A stretch of DNA of 32,000 bases from Vulcanisaeta distributa DSM 14429 (GTDB lineage: Archaea > Thermoproteota > Thermoprotei > Thermoproteales > Thermocladiaceae), in contig NC_014537.1 of the NCBI RefSeq assembly GCF_000148385.1, positions 450,001-482,000 of the forward strand, given 5' to 3'. Made by a program: the position numbers and the translations under genes. Below the pieces are notes generated by a model. That model was given only the letters and a program-made list of their open reading frames with translations, was not told the DNA's origin and searched no databases. Position 1 is the first letter of the stretch; every line of letters starts with the position of its first letter. This document shows positions 2,482 to 29,826 of this stretch, piece by piece.

Positions 2482-3647
2482 GAACCATTGATAGCCTTGG
2501 AATAAACCTTTAAGTAGCCCTTAACCATATTCTCCATACTAAACCTCTCGGAGACCTCAAGCGCCCTCTGTGAAAGCTTTCTGTACAGGTTTTCGTCTGT
2601 GAGTAGTTGAATTAGGGCGTCCGCGTACTCCCTTTCATTGAGGGTATTAACCATGAGCCCCGCGCCTGTCTCAGCAACTAGTTCATACGAGTATGTTGAT
2701 TTATGTGTAATGACGGGTTTACCCATTGCATAGGCCTCGGCAATCACTATTCCAAAGCCCTCGGCTAAGCTTGGGTGCGTGAGTACCATTGATTGGGCGA
2801 GTACCTTCATGGCCTCGGTCCTGGGTAATGAGCCGTGCATGATTACGTTGTTCTCGAGGTCGAGCTTGTTAACTAGGTCCTTAATGTCCCTGTATATTGG
2901 TCCATCACCAACAATGTGAAGCTTAGCCTTTGATAGCTCATTAACCACAAGCCTGAAGGCCCTTACTAACCACTTAACGCCCTTATACTCCATTAACCTG
3001 CCAATGAAGACCACCGAGTAATTCTCTACATGAGTAGTACTCTTTGCTATGTCTCTTAGCCAATTAATATTGACGCCATTATATACTACATGAACCTTCT
3101 TGAGAAGCCCATTCTTAGCCTTATCGTCTAGGCCTATTAATGAATCCCACAAGGCTGATTTAGAGGCAAACACAATATACTTAATGTCAGGTTTAGTAAT
3201 GATTTGCACTAGCCTGGCGGGTATTGAGTGCGTTAGGTCGAAGAGTATTGACCTGATCCTATCCTCGCCACCCATGAGTAGCCTAATTCTGCCTAGGAGT
3301 GGTGTACCGTGTACCGTGACTATTGTTGGTGCTATTTTCGAAATCCAGGGTAAATACCCTGTTACACCGCTTACATCGTGAATCACATCAGGCTTAAGTC
3401 CCTTTACTAGCTTAGTGATGCTATAGCTCCTTGTTATGTAGAACCAGATATCCTTAGGTGGTATAGCCGGCGATGTAAGAAAGTACTCGTTTAAGGATTG
3501 AGAATTATAATTAATCATGTGCTTCTTAGAAATTATGAAGACTTCATTACCGAATGTTTCAAGCCCCTTACTTAGTTCGTATGTGAATGTGCCAATACCA
3601 CCTCCTGAATATGGTGGATAATCAGTCGTTAATAAGACAATCCTCAT
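2478..3647 (-). CDS. Glycosyltransferase, group 1 (GT4)
   Basis: A 389-aa ORF. The N-terminus MRIVLLTTDYPPYSGGGIGTF and the motif EGFGIVIAEAYAMGKPVI (E-x7-E region) are classic GT4 signatures. Confidence 0.9.
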   Translation of the reverse strand: MRIVLLTTDYPPYSGGGIGTFTYELSKGLETFGNEVFIISKKHMINYNSQSLNEYFLTSPAIPPKDIWFYITRSYSITKLVKGLKPDVIHDVSGVTGYLPWISKIAPTIVTVHGTPLLGRIRLLMGGEDRIRSILFDLTHSIPARLVQIITKPDIKYIVFASKSALWDSLIGLDDKAKNGLLKKVHVVYNGVNINWLRDIAKSTTHVENYSVVFIGRLMEYKGVKWLVRAFRLVVNELSKAKLHIVGDGPIYRDIKDLVNKLDLENNVIMHGSLPRTEAMKVLAQSMVLTHPSLAEGFGIVIAEAYAMGKPVITHKSTYSYELVAETGAGLMVNTLNEREYADALIQLLTDENLYRKLSQRALEVSERFSMENMVKGYLKVYSKAINGS

Positions 3648-4831
3648 CGTGAATTTTCAATAAATCTTTCTAAGGCACGTATATTACCGGTACTTGAGAA
3701 TAACATTTCGTATGCATTCCCTATTTGCTTACTTAACTCTTCCTGTATTTTATCATTTTTAAATAATATCTTTATTTTATTCGTATAATCATCTAAATTA
3801 TCTGCTAATGATAGATTAAGATCAATAAATTTTACCAATTCAGGATATAACTCCAGGGCTGTCCTATTGAATATCATAGGTTTTCTAAAATAAATTGTCT
3901 CAAGAAATCTATTAGATACGCTCCTATTACTTATATATATAATTACCACTGATGCATTTCGATAAAGATATCTTATAAATTTATTCGATAAGCCTTTACC
4001 TATAAAAACTAAATTTTGAGGAAGCCTTCTTGCTAATTCGGGAAAAGCCCTCTGAAATTCATCTTTAGTACTTCCAAATACAATTATTGGTATCTCTGGA
4101 TTCCTCCGTGCTATACCATAAATAAGTAATGCATGCGGTACTGCTTCATACTTCTCTATATCAAAAGCCTTGATAAGTATCGTTGAAGCAAGTACATATC
4201 CCCCATACTTATTGATAATATTGTTAATTATTTCGTATGCCTTTTCATCTACTTCATTAATAGTATCTTTAGGAATACCTGGCGTAGGATATATCTTACT
4301 TCCTGGTATATGTGGTGCTATATATTTACCGACTTTATATGTATAGTGATCTTCATATATTATTGCATTAGAGGATATCATTTTTACGTAATTTACAAAA
4401 AGTGATGGCATAAACAATGCAAGGTCATAATATGATCCGTGCAATAAATTATCTATAAGTTTAAGCGCCCTTATAGACCAGAACCTGGTAATGAGTAATG
4501 CGCCAATAGATCTCTTAATATAATTATATATACTAATGCTTTGTTTCCATGGAATTCCGGATGTTAGTATAATAATATCTAACTCATTAATGCAACAGCT
4601 TAATGCTTTAATTAATGAGCTAGATCCATAATTTAATGGTATCTCAATAATATTTACTTTAGAATGCCCTCTATCAATTTCTACCCACATACTGTTCTTC
4701 CTAATATCTCTAATGAATGGATTTAATGCAATAGCATATGTATGGTAACCATGATAATTAAGTGTAGCTATCAATCCTAATTCATGCCTCGTGTAAAGGT
4801 CTAAGGCGCCTATTACGGCAATAGTCTTCAT
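3644..4831 (-). CDS. Hypothetical protein, possibly a divergent GT-B-like glycosyltransferase; AT-rich gene
   Basis: A 395-aa uninterrupted ORF chained by 4-nt overlaps on both sides. The C-terminal half (IIVFGSTKDEFQRAFPELARRLPQNLVFIGKGLS) resembles a Rossmann-like GT-B domain. I recognised no catalytic motif. The composition is markedly Ile/Asn/Lys/Tyr-rich. Confidence 0.6.
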   Translation of the reverse strand: MKTIAVIGALDLYTRHELGLIATLNYHGYHTYAIALNPFIRDIRKNSMWVEIDRGHSKVNIIEIPLNYGSSSLIKALSCCINELDIIILTSGIPWKQSISIYNYIKRSIGALLITRFWSIRALKLIDNLLHGSYYDLALFMPSLFVNYVKMISSNAIIYEDHYTYKVGKYIAPHIPGSKIYPTPGIPKDTINEVDEKAYEIINNIINKYGGYVLASTILIKAFDIEKYEAVPHALLIYGIARRNPEIPIIVFGSTKDEFQRAFPELARRLPQNLVFIGKGLSNKFIRYLYRNASVVIIYISNRSVSNRFLETIYFRKPMIFNRTALELYPELVKFIDLNLSLADNLDDYTNKIKILFKNDKIQEELSKQIGNAYEMLFSSTGNIRALERFIENSR

Positions 4832-6669
4832 GAGGGTTCAAGCAGTGTGGCGTAGTTGCTGTTGAATATGATGTTAGGGTTGTTTAATGGGTTATACACT
4901 ATTGTTGGCGGTATGCCTGGGCCTAAGGTTACGTAGTAGGCCTTGCTCAGTGTCCCATTGTAGACTACCACGTATACGTTCACGCTGCTTTCATTATATA
5001 TGAAGCGTATCATGGGCAATGCTTGGGCTATCACGTTAGTTGGATATGCGCCAACGCCGCCTAGGCTAGGCGTATACCACGGTAATGTACCCATTATCGG
5101 CGAATATACGTATAGTGGACCCGTGTTGCTGGGCAGTAGGTTGTTTAACAACAATGTGCATTCATACTCACTCCTGGTTAATGGGGGTACGTTGTAGTGG
5201 TGTATCTTGGCGTACTCAATGGGTGATATGCTTGGGTCGTATGAGGCTATGGGGACTATCGCCACCAGTAGCAGTATTAAGAGCATTAGAATAGCTTTAC
5301 TTTTATCCTTAAGCCTTGTTAAGGCAAGGCCCACTATCGGGAAGGTTAGGGGTATTGCGGTGTAGGCATTCACCGTTATTGGATATGTTGCCGTAAATAT
5401 CCTCTGCACGGCGGCTATCCCTGGTACAACAAGACCCACCACTAGGAGTGTCATTAACCACACGTTCTCCCTCCTCTTCCTAAACACGACATAAAGTAGG
5501 TACGATGCGGCTATTGAGAATGCCAGCGACCACGCATAGGCCAATACTGGGTTAGCCCCACTGTATAGGAAGTGGTATTGAACACCCTTAACCTTAGTTA
5601 TGCTTCTTACGAATAATCTAATTAATATTTGCCATATTGCCTGGTTTAAGCTATCCAACATTGGGTATACATACGTGAAGTAGCCCTGCGTGTATAGGAA
5701 GACCAGTAGGGTAACTACCGTATATACTGCGAATAGGAATAGTATTAGGCCTTTCCTAGCCGAGGTAGCCCCCTGGTGAATTGGCTTATATAGCCTCAGG
5801 GCCCTTAAGACATACCATGCCACTATGAATGAAATAGGCACCAGCAGCATTAGTAGGGCTGTGGTTAGTGAGAGCACGGCCAGTATGTAGCTCAGGGCGC
5901 TGATTACTGCGTTTTGCGCCGGTTCAAAGCCCTCTATAACGTTGATTAACGTCACCGTGGAGATTAGTACGAATAGGTTGGATAGCCATAGGTGTGGGTT
6001 GAGGGTTAATGCAGTCTCAGGGGTTACCCCTACGAAGAATGCCGCCAGCACGGATGCTGCCTTATTTTGCGTCAGCCTGAGCGTCAGCATGTATATGACC
6101 ATGTCGTAGACTATGGTGAATACCGCATACCAAATACCCCATACCAGTGACGAATACCAGGGTAGGTTAAGGACCTTAGCCATCATAACCACCTGAGCCA
6201 CCTGGGCTGGGAATGGGTTATAGGCCGGGTTGTAGGCGAAGCTGAAGCTCCAATGCCCAGCCATATACATATCCCTATACATCTCTATCCCCTCTCCCCA
6301 ACTAATGCCAGTGCTTGGCAATTGATCATTTAGCAGTATTATGTTAAGCATTATTACGGATGACAGGGCCTTGGAGATCATGGAGTCCGTTGGCTTAGAT
6401 GCAATCATTGGTATTATCGTTAATGCGGCTATTGCCGTTATGGCTACTTCGTAAATCATCGGGTAACCCGCCCTAATGGGCGTGGCTAAGTTAAGGAACA
6501 GCGTGACTAAGGCCAATACGTCGGCGGCTGTGAGCATCGCGTTGGCCGTCCCATGGCTCAAGGGTGGCTCACGGTCACCTTTATTATGTGTTAATATGAG
6601 CAGTGTCGTGAATAGTACCGTAAATAGGCCCGTTAATAGCAGTAACGCTGATGGGAAGCTTATACCCAC
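4828..6669 (-). CDS. Multi-pass integral membrane protein; candidate glycan polymerase or GT-C-like enzyme (function inferred from context only)
   Basis: A 613-aa ORF with a GTG start. It has many hydrophobic segments over roughly the first 480 aa, followed by a soluble C-terminal domain of about 130 aa containing the N-x-S/T sequons NES and NGT. It sits inside the GT cluster. Confidence 0.7.
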   Translation of the reverse strand: MGISFPSALLLLTGLFTVLFTTLLILTHNKGDREPPLSHGTANAMLTAADVLALVTLFLNLATPIRAGYPMIYEVAITAIAALTIIPMIASKPTDSMISKALSSVIMLNIILLNDQLPSTGISWGEGIEMYRDMYMAGHWSFSFAYNPAYNPFPAQVAQVVMMAKVLNLPWYSSLVWGIWYAVFTIVYDMVIYMLTLRLTQNKAASVLAAFFVGVTPETALTLNPHLWLSNLFVLISTVTLINVIEGFEPAQNAVISALSYILAVLSLTTALLMLLVPISFIVAWYVLRALRLYKPIHQGATSARKGLILFLFAVYTVVTLLVFLYTQGYFTYVYPMLDSLNQAIWQILIRLFVRSITKVKGVQYHFLYSGANPVLAYAWSLAFSIAASYLLYVVFRKRRENVWLMTLLVVGLVVPGIAAVQRIFTATYPITVNAYTAIPLTFPIVGLALTRLKDKSKAILMLLILLLVAIVPIASYDPSISPIEYAKIHHYNVPPLTRSEYECTLLLNNLLPSNTGPLYVYSPIMGTLPWYTPSLGGVGAYPTNVIAQALPMIRFIYNESSVNVYVVVYNGTLSKAYYVTLGPGIPPTIVYNPLNNPNIIFNSNYATLLEPS

Positions 6670-6816: not shown

Positions 6817-7947
6817 CTACTTAATGACCTCGTTATAATATTTAATCGTTAACTTAGCCACATCACTCCATCTAAGTAGCCTTTCCCTGACCTTTTTAGC
6901 CTTATCCACGTAATCTTTGTAATATTCACTATTTAGCATTTTAATCATAGCCTCTGCAATGCTGGTCTCGTTTAGTTCTGTTATTACTATATGTTCCATG
7001 CTAAGCCTCGGTATTGAACCAATGCCTGTCGCTATTAATGGTTTAAGCCTGGCGGCAGTTTCATTAGCGATTAATGGGTAACTCTCGCCAGCATGCCTCG
7101 ATGGTAAGATCACGGCCCTTGACGCGTCTATTAACGCTATTTTATCGTCCTCATTGATATATCCAAGCATTAAAACTAGGCCATTAAGTCTAAGTTTATC
7201 AATTAATTTACTTAAGTAACTAATATATTTACGGTCTCCTTTCCCAGCTAACACCAGTCTTATATTATCAAATTTATTAATAACATATTTAAAAGCTTTA
7301 ATAAGCATATCAATACCCTTAGTCCAATGAAGCCTACCAATGTAGGTAAATATCTCATCGGTGATCCCATATTTATTCCTAAAGGCCCAGGCCCTACTGG
7401 GCTCCTCTAAGTATTCATCATCAATGCCATGGGGAATAACCGCTGAATCCACACCATACCTACTCATCAATAATTCTCTTTCATAATTATTCGTAACGAA
7501 TAAAAGCCTTGACAATTTAATGAACCTTCTGGTTAAGTATACCTGGTACTTGAAACCTAGTGTTCTCATTAATAGCCTGTAGTGATTATGTAGATAATCC
7601 ACTGCAATGAGGTATGTAATGATAGGCTTACCGTATTCATAAGCCTTTCTCTCGATGATGTATGTAAATAAGCTATTTTGATTATACCCCTGAATTATAT
7701 CGGCATTCTTCAATAACTCATTAGGTACATTTATCGGTATAGAAATCTCACGGTAATTAGGTATGTGAATTATCGGTACTCTATGAACCCTCAATATGCC
7801 ATCACCCTTAAAGCCATCATTAATATTGCCAGTCAAGACGTAAACCTCATTACCAAACTTAGTCTGCCAAAGACCTAACCTATTCATTGTGACTTCAATA
7901 CCACCAACTACTGGAAAATAATTATGATGGATATGTATGATCCTCAT
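6817..7947 (-). CDS. Glycosyltransferase, group 1 (GT4); AT-rich gene
   Basis: A 376-aa ORF. The N-terminus MRIIHIHHNYFPVVGGIEV and the segment SRHAGESYPLIANETAARLKPLIAT fit the GT4 pattern. Confidence 0.85.
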   Translation of the reverse strand: MRIIHIHHNYFPVVGGIEVTMNRLGLWQTKFGNEVYVLTGNINDGFKGDGILRVHRVPIIHIPNYREISIPINVPNELLKNADIIQGYNQNSLFTYIIERKAYEYGKPIITYLIAVDYLHNHYRLLMRTLGFKYQVYLTRRFIKLSRLLFVTNNYERELLMSRYGVDSAVIPHGIDDEYLEEPSRAWAFRNKYGITDEIFTYIGRLHWTKGIDMLIKAFKYVINKFDNIRLVLAGKGDRKYISYLSKLIDKLRLNGLVLMLGYINEDDKIALIDASRAVILPSRHAGESYPLIANETAARLKPLIATGIGSIPRLSMEHIVITELNETSIAEAMIKMLNSEYYKDYVDKAKKVRERLLRWSDVAKLTIKYYNEVIK

Positions 7948-8156
7948 AATATCATCCTCCTCTCAATCTCAATACCCTTAAGATTATCAGGCACCTCATC
8001 CGGTGTACCGTGTCCATTCATGTAGGCTTTACTTGCTATAATGTTAAGCGTCTCCGGCCCAGTGTACCTTGCCACATCCATCCTATGCTTAATTAAGGCA
8101 TGCGTTGAGTACGCTACTTGGTAATCCAGCCTATTGCCGTGTGTATGGCTACGCAT
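7944..8156 (-). CDS. Small hypothetical ORF (70 aa, or 45 aa from the internal Met)
   Basis: The ORF ends in an ATGA overlap with the GT4 start at 7947. It overlaps the upstream ORF by 43 nt. No recognisable motif. Confidence 0.25.
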   Translation of the reverse strand: MRSHTHGNRLDYQVAYSTHALIKHRMDVARYTGPETLNIIASKAYMNGHGTPDEVPDNLKGIEIERRMIL

Positions 8157-8497
8157 GGCTCACCCGTGGCTGTTATGAAGCCATCAGCGATCATTACTGC
8201 CATGGGCTCTATATAGACGTCGAACACCCTCCCATCAACCCTAACCACAGCGTGGGCCAATTCAACCAATTTGAAGGAGGCGGGCCTGTAGGGCACGTTA
8301 TCACCGCATAGGCCAACCACCTGCTGTGGCTGTTTACTAAACCTAGCCCCCACGTCAATGAGGGCCGTTATTTCGTAGCCCTCGCCAACCCTAGCTGCCT
8401 TAACGCCAACTATCCTATACCTAATAGTCACGTAATCCTCAACCTCAATTAGGCCTGGCTGGCTGTCTAGGATCTCTACATCAAGTGGCGTTACCAT
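8114..8497 (-). CDS. Hypothetical protein, predicted beta-rich
   Basis: Track ORF 8114..8539. I prefer Met15 (MVTPLDVEILD) as the start, which overlaps the upstream ORF stop by 17 nt. No family recognised. Confidence 0.45.
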   Translation of the reverse strand: MVTPLDVEILDSQPGLIEVEDYVTIRYRIVGVKAARVGEGYEITALIDVGARFSKQPQQVVGLCGDNVPYRPASFKLVELAHAVVRVDGRVFDVYIEPMAVMIADGFITATGEPCVAIHTAIGWITK

Positions 8498-8780
8498 AAA
8501 CCCCCACTTTAACCCTCCTAAACACGTTAACAACCTCACCGCGGTCGCTCACCCACCTCTTAACCTCAAGGTCGACACCCCATACGCCGTTATCGTCTGC
8601 GAATATTGCGAAGTTACCAACACCCTCAATAACGTACTTAACCTCACCATCCCTAAACCTAATAGACACAACCTCAACCGAGGCGTCATAATAAGCCCTA
8701 GCAACCGCCACCACAGGGGCCTGTGACCCAGAGTTAGTCACGACATTTGACTGTACATTACTCACCCACACACCCACCAC
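8481..8780 (-). CDS. Hypothetical protein (99 aa)
   Basis: GTG start at 8780, preceded by a GGAGGG Shine-Dalgarno-like motif (plus-strand ccctcc at 8785..8790). No family recognised. Confidence 0.45.
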   Translation of the reverse strand: MVGVWVSNVQSNVVTNSGSQAPVVAVARAYYDASVEVVSIRFRDGEVKYVIEGVGNFAIFADDNGVWGVDLEVKRWVSDRGEVVNVFRRVKVGVYGNAT

Positions 8781-8822: not shown

Positions 8823-9377
8823 CTAACCAAGCACCCTCTTTAATTCACTCAACGCCTCCTCCAGATCACTACCCCACTTTACTCTAGTTTTTACCTCCTC
8901 TATTCTTCTTGTTAATTCCTTGATTAGTTCCATTGCTGCTTTTGCTGCTTCTTCCCTGTTTCTGAACTTTGATAACGCCATGTCTGGGTCTGGCCCGTTG
9001 TATTGGTAGTCGTGTAGGTCTAGGGCAGCGCTTGTGGTGAAGTATAACCCAACATACCCAACCTCCTCAAGCATCTGCGACAATGCTACCATTCTGGTGG
9101 TTGGAACCCTGGGAACAGCCTTATCCATTAACCACCTACGCTCCTCCTCAGTCTTAGCAACCTTAAGAAGATTATTGAGTTCAAGCCTTAGTAAAGCCGC
9201 CAAAAACGCCCTCCAAGCCTGAAAAGCCTTACCAGCCGCATTTCTAACCAAGCCCTCACTGAGGAACCTAATGGCTAGGTATGCCTCAACAAGTGCTTCG
9301 AGTAACCTGGCGCTCACGTAGTCCTCCGTGGTGAGTTTCGGCAGTGGTTTCTCGATTGTCTCGGTGCTCATACCCAC
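8823..9377 (-). CDS. PaREP1-family protein (intact copy)
   Basis: A 184-aa ORF. The N-terminal helix pattern FLSEGLVRNAAGKAFQAWRAFLAALL and the later LDLHDYQYNGPDPD match my recollection of the archaeal PaREP1/PaREP8 family (PF05942). A TATA-like CTTTTAAA lies about 22-29 nt upstream (plus strand 9399..9406). Confidence 0.8.
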   Translation of the reverse strand: MGMSTETIEKPLPKLTTEDYVSARLLEALVEAYLAIRFLSEGLVRNAAGKAFQAWRAFLAALLRLELNNLLKVAKTEEERRWLMDKAVPRVPTTRMVALSQMLEEVGYVGLYFTTSAALDLHDYQYNGPDPDMALSKFRNREEAAKAAMELIKELTRRIEEVKTRVKWGSDLEEALSELKRVLG

Positions 9378-9424
9378 CTAGTTGCTGGGCCTGGGTTTAA
9401 AAGCGCTCAATGCTCTGCTGGGCT

Positions 9425-10429
9425 TCATGTTACTTCCTGCAGGGCCTTCTTCACGGCTTCCCTGTGTATTGGTGTTTGCCATGCCACGTACCTACCAATG
9501 CCCAGCTCCCCATCCTTTTCTGGCGGTGGTGTGTCCACCCAGTAGTCTGGTTTTCTCTTGGGTAGGAAGTGGATGATGAGGTTCCTCTCGATTAACTCAT
9601 TGATTAATTCCCCGGGTGCGTTGAACCATAGGTAATCAGGGTCACCAACGGCCTCCCTAAGGTGACCCGCCCACTTCTTAATGAAGTCGGGTGATAGTTC
9701 CTTTTCCTTGGTGATTTTATCAATGATTTTACCTACGTCCCAGTTGGCGCTGTATAGGCTCTCTAGCATTGCTGGGTTTCCTCCGGTTATTCGCCAAACC
9801 TCTTCGAGGTCCGGCTTATCGCCGGGTAATTGCTCGTAGAGTTGCTTGAAGCCTTCCCTAGGCATGTTCCACATGGGTGTTGACCAAGCCCACCTATGCC
9901 TACCAATCTCCCTCAAACTCACACCCTCGCTCGTGGCTACTATCGTGACTATCCTCTCATAATGCTCGGGTGGGTACTCAATGAGGTTTAGCAGTGCCTT
10001 CACGTACAATGCAGACTCCTTAACGCCAATGACTTGGAATGCATCATCGACTATCACGGCTACCTTGCCCCTGGTCACCCTAATCAACTCCTTGGCGAAG
10101 TCAAAGGCAAGCCAAGCCAACCTACCGAGGGCATTTTGGGCAAGAGCCTCCCTAACCATCCTAAGGAATTCATCCCTGAGACTAGCCACACCGAACTCGG
10201 CAAGAACCTCCTTATTAATTGGGTTAACGTAAATAACCTCAAAACCAAACTCCCTAAGCAACACCACAGACTGCAGAAGCCAAGCAGACTTACCACAACC
10301 CTCAGGGCCATAAATGACCTGCACCGGGTATGTGCCTTTCCCAGCCCACTCCTCAATGAGTTTAAGGGCGAGGTCCCTATCCACGAATTCCACTTGTTGA
10401 TTTGCGAAGTTGAGTTTGACCCTCTTCAT
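9425..10429 (-). CDS. Archaeal AAA+/STAND-like ATPase (Arch_ATPase / COG1672-like), paralog A1
   Basis: A 334-aa ORF. It has FVDRD, then Walker A GPEGCGKSAW, Walker B VAVIVDDAFQ, and the conserved C-terminus PPPEKDGELGIGRYVAWQTPIHREAV. Confidence 0.85.
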   Translation of the reverse strand: MKRVKLNFANQQVEFVDRDLALKLIEEWAGKGTYPVQVIYGPEGCGKSAWLLQSVVLLREFGFEVIYVNPINKEVLAEFGVASLRDEFLRMVREALAQNALGRLAWLAFDFAKELIRVTRGKVAVIVDDAFQVIGVKESALYVKALLNLIEYPPEHYERIVTIVATSEGVSLREIGRHRWAWSTPMWNMPREGFKQLYEQLPGDKPDLEEVWRITGGNPAMLESLYSANWDVGKIIDKITKEKELSPDFIKKWAGHLREAVGDPDYLWFNAPGELINELIERNLIIHFLPKRKPDYWVDTPPPEKDGELGIGRYVAWQTPIHREAVKKALQEVT

Positions 10430-10986
10430 TGTTTATCCTTAGTTGGGTTTTTCCTGGGTTCATTTAGTGCCTCCTCTAGGTCGTTGCTCCACCTTACTCT
10501 TGGCTTCAACTCCTCAATGCGCTTGGTCAGCTCCTCTATGAGTAGTTTTACGTCCACCGCAGCCTCCCGCCTACTCCTATACTTCGACAGCGCCAAATCC
10601 GGGTCCGGACCATTGTACTGATAATCGTGTAGTTCCAGGGCCACCGCTGTCCAAGCAGATAACGCTTCATAATCAATCTCCTCAAGCATTTGCGCCAGCA
10701 CCTTCATCCTGCCCGTTGAAACCCTAGGGACAACCCTCCCCATTAATCACCCACGTACTTCATCAGTCCTAACCACCTGGAGCAACCTATCAAGCTCAAG
10801 CCTCAGTAATACAGCCAATAAAGCCCTCCAGGCCTGGAAGGCTTTGCCCGCCGCGTTTCTGACTAGGCCTTCATTAAGGAATTTGATGGCTAGGTTTGCC
10901 TCGGTTAGGGACTCCAGGAGCCTGGCATTTATGTAGTTCTCCGTGGTTGGCTTGGGTAGGGGCCTCTCGAGGTTTTCAGCGCCCAT
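10426..10986 (-). pseudogene. PaREP1-family gene interrupted by an in-frame TGA (10747..10749) at a conserved Trp position
   Basis: ORFs 10747..10986 and 10426..10743 are in the same frame. Together they align without gaps to the intact copy at 8823..9377. The stop falls exactly where the intact copy has W: RRWLMDKAVPRV versus RG*LMGRVVPRV. Confidence 0.8.
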
Positions 10987-11010
10987 GCCCCGAGCCTTCA
11001 GTGGGATTCC

Positions 11011-12027
11011 TCACATTAATCCCTGCAATGCACTCCTGACTGCTTCCCTGTGCAGTGGTGATTGCCACGCGACGCGCCTGCCAATCCCCAGCTCTGGGTC
11101 CTTCTCCGGCGGTGGTTGATCGATCCATAGGTATTCATCCCTCCACTGCGGTATTTCGATTATGAGGTTTAGCTCGATTAGCCTATTCATTAGTGGTATT
11201 CTTTCCCTGCTCATGAGTGTGTCTGGGTCGTTGATTGCCTCATCAAGCCAACGCTTTTCTTCACTGGTAAGTGAGTCTATGAATGCGTCAAGGCCCTTCT
11301 CATCACGCATATCCCTAATGACGGCCTTCACACCCCAACCAGCATTGTAAAGCCTCTCCAACATCCTCGGATTTCCACCCGTCAATTTCCAGACCTCCTC
11401 GAATGGCGGCTTATCGCCGGGCAACTGATCATACAACTGCCTGAACCCATCCCTAGGCATATTCCACATAACCCTTAGGTTAGCCCACGTGTGCCTTCCT
11501 ATCTCCCTCCTCGACACGCCCTCGCTCGTTGCTGCTATTGTGATTATTTTCTCGTAGTGCTCGGGTGGGTACTCTATTAGGTTGAGTAGTGCCTTTACGT
11601 ATAGGGCTGATTCCTTTATGCCGATTACCTGGAAGGCGTCGTCAACGATGATGGCTATTTTTCCCCTGGTCGCCTTAATCACGTCATAAACCACATTATA
11701 TGCTATCCAGGCAATCCTCGCTAGGGCATTCTGAGCAATGGCTTCCTTAATTAGTCTCAGGAACTCATCCTTAAGGCTGTTGATGCTTATCTCGGCGAGG
11801 GCAAGCCTATTGACGGGGTTAACATAAACAACCTCAAAACCAAACTCCCTAAGCAACTCAATGGACTGAAGCAACCAGGCGGTCTTACCACAACCCTCAG
11901 GCCCCAAGACAACCTGGACTGGGAAGGTACCCTTCACAGCCCATTCCTCGGCAACTCTCCTGAGGGCCGAGTCTCTATCAACGAATTCTATTTCCTTGCC
12001 TGCGAAGTTGAGTTTGACCCTCTTCAT
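11011..12027 (-). CDS. Archaeal AAA+/STAND-like ATPase, paralog A2
   Basis: A 338-aa ORF with Walker A GPEGCGKTAW, Walker B IAIIVDDAFQ, and C-terminus PPPEKDPELGIGRRVAWQSPLHREAV. Confidence 0.85.
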   Translation of the reverse strand: MKRVKLNFAGKEIEFVDRDSALRRVAEEWAVKGTFPVQVVLGPEGCGKTAWLLQSIELLREFGFEVVYVNPVNRLALAEISINSLKDEFLRLIKEAIAQNALARIAWIAYNVVYDVIKATRGKIAIIVDDAFQVIGIKESALYVKALLNLIEYPPEHYEKIITIAATSEGVSRREIGRHTWANLRVMWNMPRDGFRQLYDQLPGDKPPFEEVWKLTGGNPRMLERLYNAGWGVKAVIRDMRDEKGLDAFIDSLTSEEKRWLDEAINDPDTLMSRERIPLMNRLIELNLIIEIPQWRDEYLWIDQPPPEKDPELGIGRRVAWQSPLHREAVRSALQGLM

Positions 12028-13043
12028 GGCTTAGTCTCCCCTAGTACCTTCCTGATTGCTTCCCTGTGTATTGGTGTTTGCCATGCCACGTACCTACCAA
12101 TGCCCAGCTCCCCATCCTTTTCTGGCGGTGGTTCTCCGATCCACAGGTATTCCTTCCTCTCGGGTATATCATCAATTATTAGGTTTAATTCGACGAGTTT
12201 GTCCATGAGAGGTATCCTCTCCCTATTCATTAGGGTGTCTGGGTTTTCGGTGGCTTCCTGGAGCCAGGATTTCTCGGTGTTGGTGAGGGATGATATGAAC
12301 GTCCTTAGTCTCTTTTCGCTGATTATATCGCTGATTACCTTATCCGTGTTCCACCTGTTCTCGTAGAGGTTTCCCAGCATCCTCGGGTTACCGCCGGTTA
12401 GCTTCCACGCTTCCTCGAGGCTTGGCTTATTGTCGGGTATTTGCTCGTAGAGTTGCCTAAAGCCGTCCCTCGCCATGTTCCACATGATGTCTAGGTGGGC
12501 CCACGTGTGCCTTCCTATCTCCCTCCTCGACACGCCCTCGCTGGTGGCTACTATTGTTATTACCCTCTCGTACTCGGCTGGTGGGTACTCGATTAGGTTG
12601 AGCAGTGCCTTCACGTACATTGCCGATTCCCTAACGCCAATCACCTGGAATACGTCGTCTGCGAGTATGGCTACCCTGCCCCTCCTCGCCTTTATTAATT
12701 CATTAATTACGTTATAGGCTATCCACGCAATCCTCGCCAGGGCGTTTTGGCTAATCGCCTCCTGGGCGAGCCTGTAGAGCTCGTTTCTTAGGTCCTTAAT
12801 CCCAACTTCAGCGTAGACGCGCCCGTTGAGTGGGTTTATGTAGATCACGTCGAAGCCATAATCCCTAAGCAACTCCACAGACTGCAGGAGCCAAGCCGTC
12901 TTACCACAACCCTCAGGCCCTAGGACAACCTCCACAAGCCTCATGCCCCTATCAACCCACTCATCAATGCGTTTGAGGGCTATCTCCCTGTCCGTGAACT
13001 CAACCTGCAGGTCTAGGGCCAGGGGTAGTTTAATCCTCCTCAC
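12024..13043 (-). CDS. Archaeal AAA+/STAND-like ATPase, paralog A3
   Basis: A 339-aa ORF with Walker A GPEGCGKTAW, Walker B VAILADDVFQ, and the conserved C-terminus. It overlaps A2 by 4 nt. Confidence 0.85.
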   Translation of the reverse strand: MRRIKLPLALDLQVEFTDREIALKRIDEWVDRGMRLVEVVLGPEGCGKTAWLLQSVELLRDYGFDVIYINPLNGRVYAEVGIKDLRNELYRLAQEAISQNALARIAWIAYNVINELIKARRGRVAILADDVFQVIGVRESAMYVKALLNLIEYPPAEYERVITIVATSEGVSRREIGRHTWAHLDIMWNMARDGFRQLYEQIPDNKPSLEEAWKLTGGNPRMLGNLYENRWNTDKVISDIISEKRLRTFISSLTNTEKSWLQEATENPDTLMNRERIPLMDKLVELNLIIDDIPERKEYLWIGEPPPEKDGELGIGRYVAWQTPIHREAIRKVLGETKP

Positions 13044-14044
13044 ATTAACCCCTGCAACGCCCTCCTAACCGCCTCTCTATGCAGTGGCGACTGCCACGCG
13101 ACGTAGCGGCCAATCCCGAGTTCCTCATCCTTCTCAGGCGGTGGTGTGTCCACCCATTGGTCCGGGTCCCTGCTGGGTATTCCGTAGATTATTAGGTTCC
13201 TCTTGATGAGTTCATTGGCGAGTTCCCTGGGCCCCTCATTCCATAGGTAATCCGGGTCGCTAAGTACGGCCTCCATCTCCCTCCTCCACCGCCTAATGAA
13301 CTCCCTAGTCACTTCCCTATCCAGGATTAACTGCTCAATGACCTTATCAGCATTCCAACCCCTCTCGTAGAGTCTCTCGAGCATCCTCGGATTCCCACCA
13401 GTCAATCCCCACACCTCCTCGAATGGCGGCTTACTGCCCGGTATCTGCTCATAGAGTTTCTCGAAGCCCTCTTTCGGCATGTTCCAAATTGGCGTGATGT
13501 CCGACCACGAGTGCCTTCCAATCTCCCTTAGGCTGACGCCCTCGCTTGTTGCGGCTATTGCTATCATGCTCTCATAATTGGCTGGCGGGTGTTCGAGCAG
13601 TCCAAGTAGTCCCTTGACGTATATGGCTGCCCTGTCTAAACCAATCACTTGAAAGGCATCATCGACGATCACGGCTAGCCTGCGCACCCTAGCCTCAATG
13701 GCCTCCCTGGCAACGTCAATCACAGCCCAGGCAACCCTACCCCAGGTGAGTTGGCTCGTGGCCTCGCGGATTATATCCATTAGTTTATTCCTCAGTTTTT
13801 CAATACCAAGCTCAACAATGAATGAACCCTCGATGGGGTTTACGTAGATTACCTCAAACCCATGATCCCTCAGCACCTCAGCCGACTGCATTAGCCAAGC
13901 GGTCTTACCACAGCCCTCCGGGCCATAGACTACGTGTGGAAGGGCCATACCCCTATCAATCCATTGCTCAATCCATTTAATCGCTGAATCCCTATCCACG
14001 AAGTTAATCCTTACGTTAGCGAGCCTAAGCTCAATCCTCCTCAT
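13040..14044 (-). CDS. Archaeal AAA+/STAND-like ATPase, paralog A4
   Basis: A 334-aa ORF with Walker A GPEGCGKTAW, Walker B LAVIVDDAFQ, and the conserved C-terminus. It overlaps A3 by 4 nt. Confidence 0.85.
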   Translation of the reverse strand: MRRIELRLANVRINFVDRDSAIKWIEQWIDRGMALPHVVYGPEGCGKTAWLMQSAEVLRDHGFEVIYVNPIEGSFIVELGIEKLRNKLMDIIREATSQLTWGRVAWAVIDVAREAIEARVRRLAVIVDDAFQVIGLDRAAIYVKGLLGLLEHPPANYESMIAIAATSEGVSLREIGRHSWSDITPIWNMPKEGFEKLYEQIPGSKPPFEEVWGLTGGNPRMLERLYERGWNADKVIEQLILDREVTREFIRRWRREMEAVLSDPDYLWNEGPRELANELIKRNLIIYGIPSRDPDQWVDTPPPEKDEELGIGRYVAWQSPLHREAVRRALQGLM

Positions 14045-15057
14045 TACTTCAGGGATTCAAGGACCCTCTTAACGGCTTCCCTATGTATTGGGCTTTGCCA
14101 TGCGACGTACTTGCCGATCCCTAGTTCCTCATCCTTTTCTGGTGGTGGTTGGTCTATCCATAGGTACTCCCTCCTCTCGGGCACATCATCAATTATCAGG
14201 TTCAATTCAACCAGTCTGTCCATGAAAGGTATCCTCTCCCTAGCGAATAACGTGTCAGGATCATTAACCGCCTCCATGAGCCAAGCCCTCTTGACGCTTG
14301 AGAGAGACCTTGCGAATCGCCTTAACTTATTTCTATTAATCACCTCATTAACCACCTTATCAACACTCCAATTATTCTCATAGAATCTCTCCAACATCCT
14401 TGGGTTTCCTCCGGTTATTCGCCAAACCTCGTCGAACGGTGGCTTATCGCCGGGTATTTGATTATACAACTGCCTAAAGCCTTCCTTCGGCATGTTCCAC
14501 ATGGGCATTATGTCGGACCACTCATGCCTACCAATCTCCCTCAAACTCACACCCTCACTCGTGGCTACTATCGTGACTATTTTCTCGTAATCCCCAGGTG
14601 GGTGTTCTATTAGCCCGAGCAGTCCCTTGACATATACGGCCGCCTTATCAAGGCCTATGACTTGGAAGGCGTCGTCGACGATAACCGCCAGTCTACCCCT
14701 CCTCATCCTTATTAATTCCCTGGCTAGGTCAATGATCACCCACACAGCCCTGACCCAGGCGTCGCTGGTGGCCTCACGGAGGATCTCAACCAGTCTCTTC
14801 CTAACATCCTCAACGCCCACCTCAGCCATGAACCTCTGCTCAATGGGGTTTATGTAGATCACGTCGAAGCCATAATCCCTAAGCAACTCCACAGACTGCA
14901 GGAGCCAAGCCGTCTTACCACAACCCTCAGGCCCATAGATGACCTTCGGAAACCCAGCACCCTTCTCGGCCCATTCCTCAACGCGTCTCATTGCTAGGTC
15001 TCTATCCACGAACTCAACCGCCAGGCTTAGCGCTAGGGATAGCCTTATCCTTCTCAC
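14044..15057 (-). CDS. Archaeal AAA+/STAND-like ATPase, paralog A5
   Basis: A 337-aa ORF with Walker A GPEGCGKTAW, Walker B LAVIVDDAFQ, and the conserved C-terminus. It overlaps A4 by 1 nt (TAATG). Confidence 0.85.
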   Translation of the reverse strand: MRRIRLSLALSLAVEFVDRDLAMRRVEEWAEKGAGFPKVIYGPEGCGKTAWLLQSVELLRDYGFDVIYINPIEQRFMAEVGVEDVRKRLVEILREATSDAWVRAVWVIIDLARELIRMRRGRLAVIVDDAFQVIGLDKAAVYVKGLLGLIEHPPGDYEKIVTIVATSEGVSLREIGRHEWSDIMPMWNMPKEGFRQLYNQIPGDKPPFDEVWRITGGNPRMLERFYENNWSVDKVVNEVINRNKLRRFARSLSSVKRAWLMEAVNDPDTLFARERIPFMDRLVELNLIIDDVPERREYLWIDQPPPEKDEELGIGKYVAWQSPIHREAVKRVLESLK

Positions 15058-15467
15058 GCCAGTCCTGGCCTATACATCATTGGTGTGTTTAGCCACATTA
15101 GGCCTATGTTTATCATGTCCTGGACCCTCCTAACCACTGCCCTAACCCAGCCAAGTCTCTCGGTTAGTCTCCTACCCACTAGGTAGGCTATGAACCTCAC
15201 CTTCCTCATTAGTACTAGGCTTAGCGCCTCTATTACTGCCTCCCTGAGCATTTCCAGGGCCTTCGGTGACTTGAACCTGAGACCTCGCCTTAGGTATGGA
15301 ATTGCCGCCTCGAGGAGGCCCCTGCGAAGTGAGTTGACCCTCCACCAAACGCCGAGTCTAATGGCTACCCTCCTTATTGACTGTATTAGTTGCAGGCTGA
15401 CTGCATTTATGGTGTTGTTCAGGAAGTCCCTTATGAGTCCCAGGGCCTCCTCGGGCGGTATAAACAT
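15054..15467 (-). CDS. Hypothetical small basic (Arg-rich) helical protein; first gene of the ATPase chain
   Basis: A 137-aa ORF that overlaps the A5 start by 4 nt. A TATA-like TTAAATAA lies 27-34 nt upstream of its ATG. No family recognised. Confidence 0.6.
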   Translation of the reverse strand: MFIPPEEALGLIRDFLNNTINAVSLQLIQSIRRVAIRLGVWWRVNSLRRGLLEAAIPYLRRGLRFKSPKALEMLREAVIEALSLVLMRKVRFIAYLVGRRLTERLGWVRAVVRRVQDMINIGLMWLNTPMMYRPGLA

Positions 15468-15493
15468 TATTAATTATAGGCTGTACCAAGCCA

Positions 15494-15501
15494 TTATTTA
15501 A
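15494..15501 (-). promoter_or_regulatory. TATA-box-like element (TTAAATAA on the minus strand) upstream of the 137-aa ORF and ATPase chain
   Basis: Plus-strand ttatttaa at 15494..15501 lies 27-34 nt upstream of the ATG at 15467. That spacing fits a leaderless crenarchaeal transcript. Confidence 0.45.
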
Positions 15502-15523
15502 GCATTGCCTTGGTGATGAGTCG

Positions 15524-15871
15524 TTATCCACGCCCAGGCCCATTGACCCTCCTCACCTCCATGGCCGCCGGTATCGCCATTAACCCCGCGGTCAGGGCAG
15601 CCCAGTATATTGGGTGTGGTGTTATTGTTATCGCCATCAGCGCGCTGGCCCCACCGTAGTTTACGCCCATGACGCCGCTGCCCATGAGGACCAGTGGGTA
15701 CCTCGCGGGTACGTGGTAGAGGCTAAGTACGTAATTGGCTACGTAGTATATTATGACTGGGGATACTAGGTATGGTATCGACAGCAGAGCCAGTGTGTAG
15801 TTCCTTATTGGTCTACCTATCATGGCCACTAGGTATGTGTTCCACGCCAGGGTCCCTACGTAATGACTCAA
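15524..15871 (-). CDS. Small hydrophobic membrane protein
   Basis: A 115-aa ORF with 3-4 hydrophobic segments, immediately downstream of and overlapping the GT2 gene. The true start may be the internal Met at 15823. Confidence 0.5.
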   Translation of the reverse strand: MSHYVGTLAWNTYLVAMIGRPIRNYTLALLSIPYLVSPVIIYYVANYVLSLYHVPARYPLVLMGSGVMGVNYGGASALMAITITPHPIYWAALTAGLMAIPAAMEVRRVNGPGRG

Positions 15872-16775
15872 TCGCCTTCCTGAGCCTGTACTCCATCCTC
15901 TTCATGTATATTGCCATGGCCGCCATTCCGAGGAATTGTAGGCCGATTAACGTGAGCATTATGGCAACCAAACCCTTCAAGTAATACTTAATCCCATAAA
16001 ACAGGTACCAATAACCAACGTAGGCACCTAGGGCGAGCCCCGGTATGAGTAGTAATGCGCCTATTAGGAATAGGATTAGCATGGGGTTATACCTTGTGGT
16101 TAGTCTCACCATGTCGCCGAATATCGCCAGGCCATCCTTTACACCGAGCTTCTTCTTACCAACCCTACGCCTATACTCAATGGGTATCTCCCTAATCACC
16201 CTGCCCGTACTAACCATGTGAGCCGCTATATGAGCCTCAATACTGAACCCACCAACCTCAGCAACCGCGTCCCTCAAGGCCTCAACCCTGACTACGTACA
16301 TGCCACTTAATACGTCGTGAAGCCTCGTGTCGAAGAGCAGGTTGAAGACCCTAGTCAACAACCAATTACCAAACCTATAAATGAGCCTCTGACTACCGGG
16401 CAAAGGCCTCCTGACACCAATCACCTCATCAGCCCCAGTCCTCACGATCTCCTCGACCAACTCCAAAACGTGCTTGGCTGGGTATGAGTAGTCGCCGTCC
16501 ATCACGAGCATGTACGGCGTGCTAACGTACTTGAGCGCAGTCCAGATGGCCATGGCCTTACCCCTACCCTCCTGCTGAACAACCCTAACACCATACCTCA
16601 AAGCCACATCCACAGTACCATCAGTGCTACCACCATCAACAACGAGGACCCTATCCCTGGGAACACCAACTCCAATGAGTTCATCGAGGACGAGCCCAAT
16701 ACCCTTAACCTCGTCTCGCGTTGGTATGACCACGGTAACTAGGTCCAGCAATTTATTGCCAACGCCACTAGCCAT
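15813..16775 (-). CDS. GT2 glycosyltransferase, dolichyl-phosphate mannose/glucose synthase-like, with C-terminal TM helices
   Basis: A 320-aa ORF with VVIPTRDE, VVDGGSTDGT, the VMDGDYSY (DxD) motif, and a hydrophobic C-terminal tail. Confidence 0.85.
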   Translation of the reverse strand: MASGVGNKLLDLVTVVIPTRDEVKGIGLVLDELIGVGVPRDRVLVVDGGSTDGTVDVALRYGVRVVQQEGRGKAMAIWTALKYVSTPYMLVMDGDYSYPAKHVLELVEEIVRTGADEVIGVRRPLPGSQRLIYRFGNWLLTRVFNLLFDTRLHDVLSGMYVVRVEALRDAVAEVGGFSIEAHIAAHMVSTGRVIREIPIEYRRRVGKKKLGVKDGLAIFGDMVRLTTRYNPMLILFLIGALLLIPGLALGAYVGYWYLFYGIKYYLKGLVAIMLTLIGLQFLGMAAMAIYMKRMEYRLRKAIESLRRDPGVEHIPSGHDR

Positions 16776-18235: not shown

Positions 18236-18309
18236 AGCGGGGTAGGGTAGCCTGGTAGCCTGCGGGGCTCATAACCCCGAGGTCCCCGGTTCAAATCCGG
18301 GCCCCGCTA
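18236..18309 (+). tRNA. tRNA-Met (anticodon CAU), initiator type
   Basis: Hand-folded cloverleaf. Acceptor AGCGGGG/CCCCGCT with A1:U72. D-arm GGGT/GCCT. Anticodon stem CGGGG/CCCCG with three consecutive G:C pairs. Anticodon loop CTCATAA. T-arm CCCGG-TTCAAAT-CCGGG. Discriminator A. No encoded CCA. Confidence 0.9.
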
Positions 18310-18473
18310 CTAATAACATTTCTTTAAATCTCTTATTAATCTTCATGGATCTTTTCTAGTATTAAATTGGCTATTATTGCATTAATTTAGTTACCCCTGT
18401 TACCTTTCACGTTGAGTACCTCCTTCATTTCCTGGGTGCCTTATTAGTTGTTTTGAGTATTTTTACTATAAGT

Positions 18474-20375: not shown

Positions 20376-23580
<3,205 letters not shown>

Positions 23581-29738: not shown

Positions 29739-29826
29739 GCGGGGGTGCCCGAGCCTGGTCAAAGGGGGCGGACTTAAGATCCGCTGGCGAAGGCCTGCGT
29801 GGGTTCGAATCCCACCCCCCGCACCA
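29739..29826 (+). tRNA. tRNA-Leu (anticodon UAA), type II with a long variable arm; 3' CCA apparently encoded
   Basis: Hand-folded. Acceptor GCGGGGG/CCCCCGC. Anticodon arm GCGGA-CTTAAGA-TCCGC. A 14-nt variable arm. T-arm GTGGG-TTCGAAT-CCCAC. Discriminator A, followed by CCA. Confidence 0.9.

Follow-up and report, generated by a model that had tools for sequence, protein, structure and literature searches.

A tandem array of five archaeal ATPase paralogs with PaREP1 genes and a basic leader protein in Vulcanisaeta distributa

Organization of the locus

The DNA considered here is a 32,000-nucleotide (nt) stretch of the genome of Vulcanisaeta distributa DSM 14429, called the window, in which all coordinates are given; its element of interest is a minus-strand locus at positions 8823-15467. 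The locus comprises a gene for an Arg-rich protein of 137 amino acids (aa), S137, five intact paralogs of the family PF01637 (ATPase_2), named A5 to A1 in transcription order, and two PaREP1 genes. The ATPase and PaREP1 families are known; the ATPase_2-PaREP1 gene association appears undescribed, and the literature searchable here, which leaves subscription titles outside, contains no description of an ATPase_2-PaREP1 or an S137 association.

An earlier note, made from the letters of this DNA, had described a chained array of five ATPases of 334-339 aa, headed by a 137-aa open reading frame (ORF) and interleaved with two PaREP1 genes, and had proposed that it encodes a multi-ATPase machine, possibly for defence or conflict. 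The gene content, the lengths and all the junctions of that description were confirmed; as for the interleaved PaREP1 genes, the last copy is intact but the middle one proved to be a pseudogene. The features are as follows.

15494..15501, minus strand: TATA-like box TTAAATAA, 27-34 nt 5' of the S137 ATG (-34)
15054..15467, minus strand: S137, 137 aa, heads the array
14044..15057, minus strand: A5, ATPase_2, 337 aa; starts with GTG, in a 4-nt overlap with the S137 stop
13040..14044, minus strand: A4, ATPase_2, 334 aa, with a short variable C-terminal segment
12024..13043, minus strand: A3, ATPase_2, 339 aa
11011..12027, minus strand: A2, ATPase_2, 338 aa, ATPase half of the first ATPase>PaREP1 module
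10426..10986, minus strand: PaREP1 pseudogene, interrupted by an in-frame TGA, with a 4-nt overlap between its 3' end and the start of A1
9425..10429, minus strand: A1, ATPase_2, 334 aa, Walker A with GKS, ATPase half of the second ATPase>PaREP1 module
9396..9403, minus strand: TATA-like box CTTTTAAA, 25-32 nt 5' of the PaREP1 ATG at 9371 (-32)
8823..9377, minus strand: intact PaREP1, PF05942, with a GTG start at 9377 or an ATG at 9371
8874..15841, strand not assigned: block common with V. souniana, 93% DNA identity, collinear

In transcription order, the genes at the first four junctions overlap by 4, 1, 4 and 4 nt; a gap of 24 nt then separates A2 from the middle PaREP1, which overlaps A1 by 4 nt, and 47 nt lie between A1 and the intact PaREP1. 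Promoter boxes were scored by a simple A+T octamer check, the sigma-70 promoter scanner being not applicable to archaea. By this measure, TTAAATAA is the sole octamer with 8/8 A+T at its spacing among the gene starts of the locus, and we infer that it would be the promoter of the chained genes, giving a leaderless transcript; CTTTTAAA is probably a separate promoter for the intact PaREP1, whose start is more likely the ATG at 9371 than the GTG at 9377. No TATA-like box was found by the octamer check 5' of A5, A4, A3 or A2. Weaker octamers, with 7/8 A+T, occur about 34-37 nt before the middle PaREP1 and before A1, so that internal promoters are possible; the assertion that only the head of the chain and the last PaREP1 carry TATA boxes therefore stands for the strongest boxes, but not for these weaker ones. 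Overlaps and promoter pattern agree on the operon-like chaining that had been noticed before. An Rfam scan of the whole window returned two tRNAs and nothing else.

The locus reads best as S137-A5-A4-A3, followed by A2>pseudo-PaREP1 and then by A1>PaREP1, because A1 and A2 fall in one sequence cluster together with other PaREP1-linked Vulcanisaeta copies, and A5, A4 and A3 lie outside it.

The proteins: ATPases, PaREP1 and S137

Regarding their family, A1-A5 matched the Pfam model PF01637 with 222.6-237.7 bits (cut-off 33.2) over profile positions 1-225, with E-values from 1e-66 to 1e-70 (2.8e-70 for A5), in agreement with the assignment in the earlier note; nSTAND_NTPase5 reached 17.7-26.0 bits, below its 34-bit cut-off. 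The Walker A (GPEGCGK[TS]AW) and Walker B (hhhhDDxFQ) motifs, the EGVS[LR]REIGRH segment and the C-terminal block PPPEKDxELGIG..VAWQ.P.HREA are invariant or nearly so in the five proteins, as the earlier note had it. The ATPase motifs are also conserved over 60 homologs, in which conservation peaks at the P-loop, Walker B, SRREIGRH, TGGNP and the C-terminal PPPEKD...HREA block, and has its minima at residues 71-120, 231-260 and 271-300. Pfam detected neither DUF234 nor a PD-(D/E)XK nuclease domain in A1-A5, and the proteins end at 334-339 aa after the lid and the C-terminal block, with no TPR, WD40, LRR or fused effector domain. A1-A5 belong to a subfamily of PF01637, the 'archaeal ATPases', that has no nuclease, and they form a lineage-specific tandem cluster.

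PADLOC, NCBIfam and PHROGs gave nothing that would make the ATPases a characterised housekeeping family; NCBIfam returned sub-threshold matches to RFC and DnaA (13-18 bits) and no Cdc6-level membership, and sequence searches against the PDB, made with a single sequence and with a 60-sequence profile, gave P-loop-level noise only. The fold was modelled for A5 with AlphaFold2 (AF2) from the 60 homologs, with a mean predicted local distance difference test (pLDDT) of 90.3 and a predicted template modelling score (pTM) of 0.88; the model shows an AAA+ core with a helical lid, followed by a C-terminal region that is well ordered and closes with a helix. In a Foldseek search of the PDB, AAA+ proteins dominated the matches: the best was archaeal Orc1/Cdc6 on DNA (2qby_A, E 3e-6, full length; also 2v1u), followed by the STAND defence NTPase Avs3 and then by RFC, DnaA, the plant nucleotide-binding leucine-rich repeat (NLR) protein RPP1 and SAMD9, with TM-scores of 0.3-0.5. 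This suggests that the C-terminal domain of A5 corresponds to the winged helix of Orc1/Cdc6, a call that derives from the full-length Foldseek alignment rather than from inspection of the model.

As for PaREP1, the intact copy matched PF05942 with 97.4 bits (cut-off 24.4; E 6e-28), and the two halves of the pseudogene with 48.8 and 35.5 bits. The middle copy has an in-frame TGA at 10747-10749 (TGG>TGA), where the intact copy has Trp, which leaves ORFs of 79 and 105 aa; it is regarded as a pseudogene because V. souniana has the same stop in its copy and adds a 1-nt indel. Pseudogene and intact copy match at 117 of 186 aligned positions. The Rx4-6H motif, already reported as missing, was found in neither copy; each has a single, conserved His, in LDLHDY or LELHDY (LDLHDYQYNG in the intact copy). 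The intact protein is 64-71% identical to the ATPase-linked PaREP1 of Pyrobaculum and Vulcanisaeta.

The grouping of PaREP1 with HEPN and KNTase_C, given in the earlier note, is found both in Pfam and in the work of Anantharaman et al. (2013; PMC3710099), who placed PaREP1/8 in the HEPN-T clade, with the Arg lost and the His kept; on the strength of this clan membership and of that paper, PaREP1 is taken as a probable HEPN relative. Direct comparisons were less telling: hhalign of PaREP1 against canonical HEPN neighbours gave a probability of 0.4% from shallow alignments (9 vs 2 sequences), and one such neighbour, in locus L009 (handles of this type denote loci collected here), cross-matches the PaREP1 model at E 8e-4. 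A sequence search of PaREP1 against the PDB gave no match, and NCBIfam, PADLOC and PHROGs gave nothing meaningful for it. The published contexts of PaREP genes are tandem PaREP genes, or neighbours with MNT and restriction endonuclease (DUF1626) domains (PMC3710099); the paREP1 HEPN proteins are expanded in Thermoproteales, never in an operon with MNT, and their partner was not identified (Makarova et al. 2009, 2013; PMC2701414, PMC3632139). In Pyrobaculum oguniense, paREP1/8 genes mark strain-variable regions.

The leader protein S137 contains 20 Arg in 137 residues, with an isoelectric point of 11.7, and has no match in Pfam, NCBIfam, PADLOC or PHROGs. When 1.84 billion representative proteins were searched exhaustively with HMMER, only 13 representative clusters came up, whose invariant residues include W41, R43, Y58, G62 and S67 together with a WLNTP..YR motif; S137 belongs to a rare, small family, which appears undescribed. 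Its AF2 model (pLDDT 87) is all-alpha, with six main helices and a short four-residue helix, and has no significant fold match in the PDB or BFVD. With a profile of the family, S137 homologs were located directly upstream of the ATPase subfamily in 11 independent loci of at least four lineages, including a Sulfolobales metagenome-assembled genome (MAG), two Desulfurococcaceae MAGs, Ignisphaera and two metagenome contigs; the ATPases that they precede belong to several sequence clusters.

Other members of the S137 family were met in different settings. A 124-126-aa paralog, matching the S137 of the window at E 1e-23 to 1e-27, occurs on the minus strand in L001 (5740-6120), L003 (5767-6141), L005 (3435-3809) and L018 (1480-1854), and in Vulcanisaeta its operon contains DUF1616, DUF1616, DUF7982, small ORFs, DUF4350 and a MoxR AAA+ ATPase, so that proteins of this family lead two different ATPase-containing operons; the window has no second S137 copy of this DUF1616-MoxR type. 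In Pyrobaculum oguniense (L035, 12684-15718), a 169-aa S137 homolog is followed by proteins of 221 and 341 aa and then by PaREP1; the two proteins have no Pfam or PADLOC match, the smaller has a VLIEAKL stretch that resembles an ExK nuclease motif, and the pair may represent an alternative cargo, with S137 on one side and PaREP1 on the other. Finally, in the 308-aa family representative P0134 the S137 domain occupies residues 213-306, preceded by a long and unrelated N-terminal part; this may be a true fusion or a gene-calling artefact.

Recurrence, history and surroundings of the array

A PaREP1 gene lies 27-76 nt downstream of an ATPase, on the same strand, in the window (twice) and in L005, L007, L035, L037 and L061. 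Elsewhere, other HEPN-type genes follow the ATPase: in L001/L002 and L031 it is RHH-PaREP1, in L009 and L028 a canonical HEPN (PF05168, E 4e-26); in L023, a HepT-MNT fusion is located 365 nt downstream of the ATPase. In the reciprocal test, 80 metagenome loci were anchored on the PaREP1 subfamily of the window: an ATPase was directly upstream of 23 of 76 PaREP1 genes, with a modal gap of 74 nt, directly downstream of 13 of 74, and on at least one side of 21 of 56, and runs in which ATPase and PaREP1 genes alternate (ATP-PAR-ATP-PAR) were present. PaREP1 genes without an ATPase were searched for another conserved neighbour, and only alternative-frame artefacts emerged. The adjacency of the 137-aa protein, ATPase and PaREP1 is conserved by synteny within Vulcanisaeta, and it recurs in Pyrobaculum, Desulfurococcales and hot-spring metagenomes.

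The ATPase subfamily itself is broader. Scanning one genome per species gave 75 loci in Thermoproteota and other archaeal phyla, several per genome and at least four in some, from Vulcanisaeta, Caldivirga, Pyrobaculum, Thermoproteus, Thermofilum, Desulfurococcales, Ignisphaera, Sulfolobales MAGs, Nezhaarchaeales and Methanomethylicota; most of them consist of a single ATPase, and long tandem arrays were seen in Vulcanisaeta. The protein database holds more than 1,400 ATPase relatives.

Within the window, A1-A5 are 54-66% identical to each other as proteins and 63-81% at the DNA level. Each has relatives in other genomes or loci at 66-73% identity, above its array mates (53-65%): the closest to A5 are in L007 and Caldivirga (about 66%), A4 clusters with solitary copies in L013 and L012, A3 comes closer than the other four (72%) to the one ATPase that V. 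moutnovskia has at this locus, and A1 is most similar (73%) to the ATPase that ends the L005 array, again with a PaREP1 gene after it. The array mates span different sequence clusters that hold solitary genes as well. Recent duplication or gene conversion was considered as their origin and rejected, given the 63-81% DNA identity and the lack of long near-identical tracts among the copies.

Synteny of the locus extends to V. souniana, V. moutnovskia and two more assemblies of Vulcanisaeta, with differences in content. V. souniana has the same five ATPases with order and lengths kept, PaREP1 pseudogene included; at the orthologous site of V. moutnovskia, S137 is accompanied by one ATPase and the remnant of a PaREP1, which in a metagenome relative is intact as RHH-PaREP1; the assembly GCA_001316285 (Vulcanisaeta) has about eight ATPase genes or fragments, with an AAA_15 gene interrupting them; and in L024, a MAG of Vulcanisaeta, at least four ATPases make up yet another set. 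Since cluster membership, number and identity of the ATPases vary in this way among Vulcanisaeta species, the five would represent a repertoire of independent units, and not the subunits of one fixed machine.

Compared with V. souniana, all genes of the locus have a ratio of nonsynonymous to synonymous substitution rates (dN/dS) of 0.09-0.30, namely 0.22 for A5, 0.09 for A3, 0.14 for A2, 0.16 for the intact PaREP1 and 0.30 for S137. The five ATPases are old paralogs under purifying selection, and the maintenance of five intact copies of 334-339 aa with dN/dS of 0.09-0.22 is far beyond chance. Synonymous divergence (dS) differs greatly between neighbouring genes, from 0.018 in A4, which is 99.4% identical in DNA to its V. 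souniana ortholog, to 0.40 in A2, and the pseudogene is 99.6% identical to the V. souniana copy; this spread points to a piecewise exchange in which the ATPases would have moved individually. The homology with V. souniana extends for about 7 kb (8874-15841 vs 9645-16663 of L003), with both flanks unrelated, and suggests either a recent piecewise recombination between species or a replacement of the flanks. At the ends of the block (8874 and 15841), neither direct nor inverted terminal repeats of at least 10 nt were found, and its edges have no tRNA; no ATPase or PaREP1 relatives were found in 2.9 million viral contigs, no ATPase relatives in phage or plasmid records, and no PHROGs matches for ATPases, S137 or PaREP1. 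On these grounds the idea of a mobile element was rejected.

In the window, the locus is flanked by GT1/GT4, GT2, a polysaccharide deacetylase and a HAD hydrolase, and then by NadA/B/C, a major facilitator superfamily transporter and an aldehyde ferredoxin oxidoreductase; in other Vulcanisaeta genomes it sits inside a glycosyltransferase/Polysacc_synt/DUF1616 cluster. A Pfam census of 150 neighbouring ORFs gave GT1/GT4 as the most frequent (8), with AAA_21 (6), AAA_15 (4), further PaREP1 (5), KaiC (4), PIN (3), Polbeta (3) and HepT (2). By PADLOC models, AAA_15/AAA_21 ATPases similar to AriA, PD-T4-4_A or GajA lie in or beside related arrays, at L005 13571-15149 (E 8e-15), L007 3650-4866, L031 6590-8304 (E 2e-34) and L065 13615-15441; those of L005 and L031 are each followed by a small uncharacterised ORF.

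Further observations concern other genes near the ATPases. A small retropepsin-like protein with a DTGAT motif is encoded 1-73 nt upstream of an ATPase in L017 (1402-1755), L020 (3077-3364) and L028 (7562-7921), and the L017 copy has no PADLOC match. In the window, two overlapping ORFs of 99 and 141 aa (8114-8780, minus strand like PaREP1) lie just 3' of that gene; neither is matched in Pfam or PHROGs, and both are outside the V. souniana block. On the other side, a hydrophobic 115-aa ORF (15524-15871, minus strand) aligns with the 3' part of a 193-196-aa gene that precedes S137 in V. souniana and V. moutnovskia; in place of the 5' part, the window has the end of a GT2 gene (15813-16775), and the ORF may be a truncated remnant. 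The G+C content is 34-38% at positions 1-1000, 3000-5000 and 7000-8000, in glycosyltransferase or unannotated flanks, against about 50-55% in the array and the housekeeping genes, which would fit horizontally exchanged surface-glycan genes. The nearby housekeeping features are tRNA-Met (18236-18310), a NadA/NadB-like/NadC operon (20376-23580), the aldehyde ferredoxin oxidoreductase (25101-27014) and tRNA-Leu (29739-29826).

Interpretation and comparison with known systems

The interpretation favoured here, held tentatively and at slightly less than an even chance, is that the array encodes a diversified set of nucleoside triphosphate (NTP) switches that would work with non-canonical HEPN partners in a conflict-type module. 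Each ATPase, with its Walker A, Walker B, SRREIGRH and TGGNP elements intact, would be an independent NTP-driven switch, recognising a ligand, either nucleic acid or protein, by way of the variable helical insert (aa 71-120) and of the lid and C-terminal surfaces (aa 231-300). It would act with PaREP1, the HEPN-T protein that keeps the His without the catalytic Arg, as an effector or as a controlled toxin-like partner, and the basic S137 could be an accessory nucleic-acid-binding or regulatory factor. Together they would form a defence or addiction module whose tandem diversification is comparable to that of NLR immune receptor gene clusters. The defence or conflict idea of the earlier note thus remains plausible, and what speaks for it is gene association. 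A bolder form of it, considered unlikely, is that S137, ATPase_2 and PaREP1 make up an archaea-specific immune system, in which minimal Orc1/STAND-like sensors would each respond to an invader cue of their own, as a prokaryotic counterpart of an NLR cluster; the sensors would activate or de-repress the separately encoded PaREP1 effector, with S137 as the shared nucleic-acid-binding component.

Several observations weigh against the favoured interpretation. HEPN and toxin-antitoxin (TA) genes are very abundant in the genomes of thermophiles, hence some ATPase-PaREP1 adjacency is expected by chance, and the PaREP1-anchored loci come from related hot-spring organisms that are not fully independent. 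About 60% of the PaREP1 genes have no ATPase neighbour and most ATPases outside Thermoproteales have no HEPN neighbour; the partnership would therefore be facultative. RNase activity of PaREP1 is uncertain because its catalytic Arg is absent, and the C-terminal region of the A5 model is, by secondary structure, mostly coil with few bridges and one terminal helix. Moreover, the window has no recognisable defence or mobile-element gene, its flanks being glycosyltransferases, a HAD hydrolase and NAD biosynthesis, and PADLOC-DB 2.0 gave no match above noise for ATPases, S137 or PaREP1: the best E-values for the ATPases were 0.0013-0.077, with mad8 and PDC-S01 as the leading models (E 0.001-0.05, N-terminus only), and S137 and PaREP1 had none, the PDC-S01 model covering only residues 14-77 at E 0.018-0.052.

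The alternative that survives best, though still improbable, sees the ATPases as Orc1/Cdc6-like cellular regulators of DNA or chromatin, acting in transcription control or genome maintenance, with the adjacency of PaREP1 reflecting joint residence in islands. The best fold match, to DNA-bound Orc1/Cdc6 over the full length, speaks for it, as do the strong purifying selection, the absence of relatives in the 2.9 million viral contigs and in phage or plasmid records, the lack of a PADLOC match, and the very basic character of S137, whose paralog heads the unrelated DUF1616-to-MoxR operon. It is less easily reconciled with a copy number that is very variable, a patchy distribution and many paralogs per genome, or with the tight and stereotyped same-strand spacing to HEPN genes (74 nt in many cases, 4-nt overlaps in others); in addition, four different HEPN families occupy the ATPase-adjacent position and defence-type ATPases are inserted in related arrays.

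Distinctly improbable is the machine that the earlier note had preferred, in which the five paralogs, with or without S137 and PaREP1, would assemble into one hetero-oligomeric NTPase, such as a clamp-loader-like heteropentamer, with co-translation fixing the stoichiometry. The overlaps of 4, 1, 4 and 4 nt from S137 to A2 do suggest translational coupling, all five genes are intact and under purifying selection with order and lengths kept in V. souniana, RFC subunits are among the Foldseek matches, and the conserved SRREIGRH could supply an arginine finger across subunits. However, the orthologous site holds one ATPase in V. moutnovskia, five in V. distributa and about eight in GCA_001316285, there interrupted by the unrelated AAA_15 gene, and L024 has its own set of at least four; array composition varies between species, closer relatives of each paralog lie elsewhere, most genomes carry dispersed single copies only, array mates fall in clusters that also occur as solitary genes, units with dS from 0.018 to 0.40 have apparently been exchanged individually, and one of the two PaREP1 genes is dead. 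The proposal of a single machine is not supported by these comparisons.

Most improbable of all is a service of the ATPases to the surrounding cell-surface glycosylation cluster, for instance in the assembly or quality control of glycan/S-layer machinery: the module does lie inside such a cluster in every Vulcanisaeta genome examined, GT1/GT4 leads the census of neighbours and a GT2 gene follows the ATPase by 85-86 nt in the Desulfurococcales MAGs L017 and L020, but glycosylation genes are missing from the neighbourhood of most of the 75 loci, clusters for surface glycans are as a rule variable and collect unrelated genes, and block and flanks evolve separately, because V. distributa and V. 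souniana are 93% identical in the ATPase block and have unrelated flanking glycosylation genes. The rest of the probability goes to explanations outside these four.

The PF01637 'archaeal ATPases' and paREP1 are among the most expanded families of hyperthermophilic Crenarchaeota, both without a known function, and the recurrent, tightly spaced ATPase>PaREP1 pair with S137 offers a concrete and testable hypothesis for both, in which PaREP1 could gain its partner. If defensive, the module would be a new type of system for the Thermoproteota, a phylum with low scores for known defence systems apart from restriction-modification, CRISPR-Cas and argonautes (PMC12988326), and the immune version, if true, would fill part of this apparent shortage. 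If not defensive, it would be a clear case of AAA+ paralogs in birth-and-death evolution, located in a hot spot of surface-glycosylation genes.

With respect to known systems, the ATPases of the window are like other PF01637/COG1672 proteins in their full-length match and AAA+ fold, and in belonging to a family with many paralogs per archaeal genome. PDC-S01, an archaeal-enriched and unvalidated defence candidate in which an ATPase is fused to a PD-(D/E)XK nuclease (2026 survey, PMC12988326), appears from this published description to be a PF01637 relative. COG1672 and PDC-S01 fusions carry a nuclease (DUF234 or PD-(D/E)XK), whereas the window ATPases have instead a lid and C-terminal region of about 110 aa with PPPEKD.ELGIG..VAWQ.P.HREA. 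Orc1/Cdc6 is the best structural match, with the same overall domain order, but the TM-score is only about 0.40 and there is no sequence-level match; unlike replication initiators, the window-type genes are multi-copy, patchy and clustered with HEPN genes. The RFC clamp loader also has five AAA+ paralogs and its subunits are among the fold matches, but an RFC-like complex needs a fixed and conserved set of subunits, while window-type arrays vary from one to about eight.

The likeness to STAND proteins (Avs and plant NLRs) is given by the Foldseek matches Avs3, RPP1 and SAMD9 and by the weak nSTAND_NTPase5 score, and the tandem diversified paralogs with HEPN-type partners resemble immune receptor clusters; the window ATPases differ in having no C-terminal repeat sensors and a length of about 335 aa, with any effector encoded separately. 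HEPN-MNT (HepT-MntA) type VII TA systems are likewise small two-gene modules with a HEPN protein, abundant in thermophiles, and adjoin the ATPase in L028 and L023, in the same islands; the window, in contrast, has no nucleotidyltransferase (MNT) between positions 8000 and 16000, the partner is an AAA+ NTPase, and the HEPN protein has no catalytic Arg. Lastly, the PaREP1 of the window is a clear member of the PaREP1/PaREP8 HEPN-T family, with the Arg lost and the His kept as published (PMC3710099), and to this family the window adds a recurrent candidate partner, ATPase_2, that the searchable papers do not mention.

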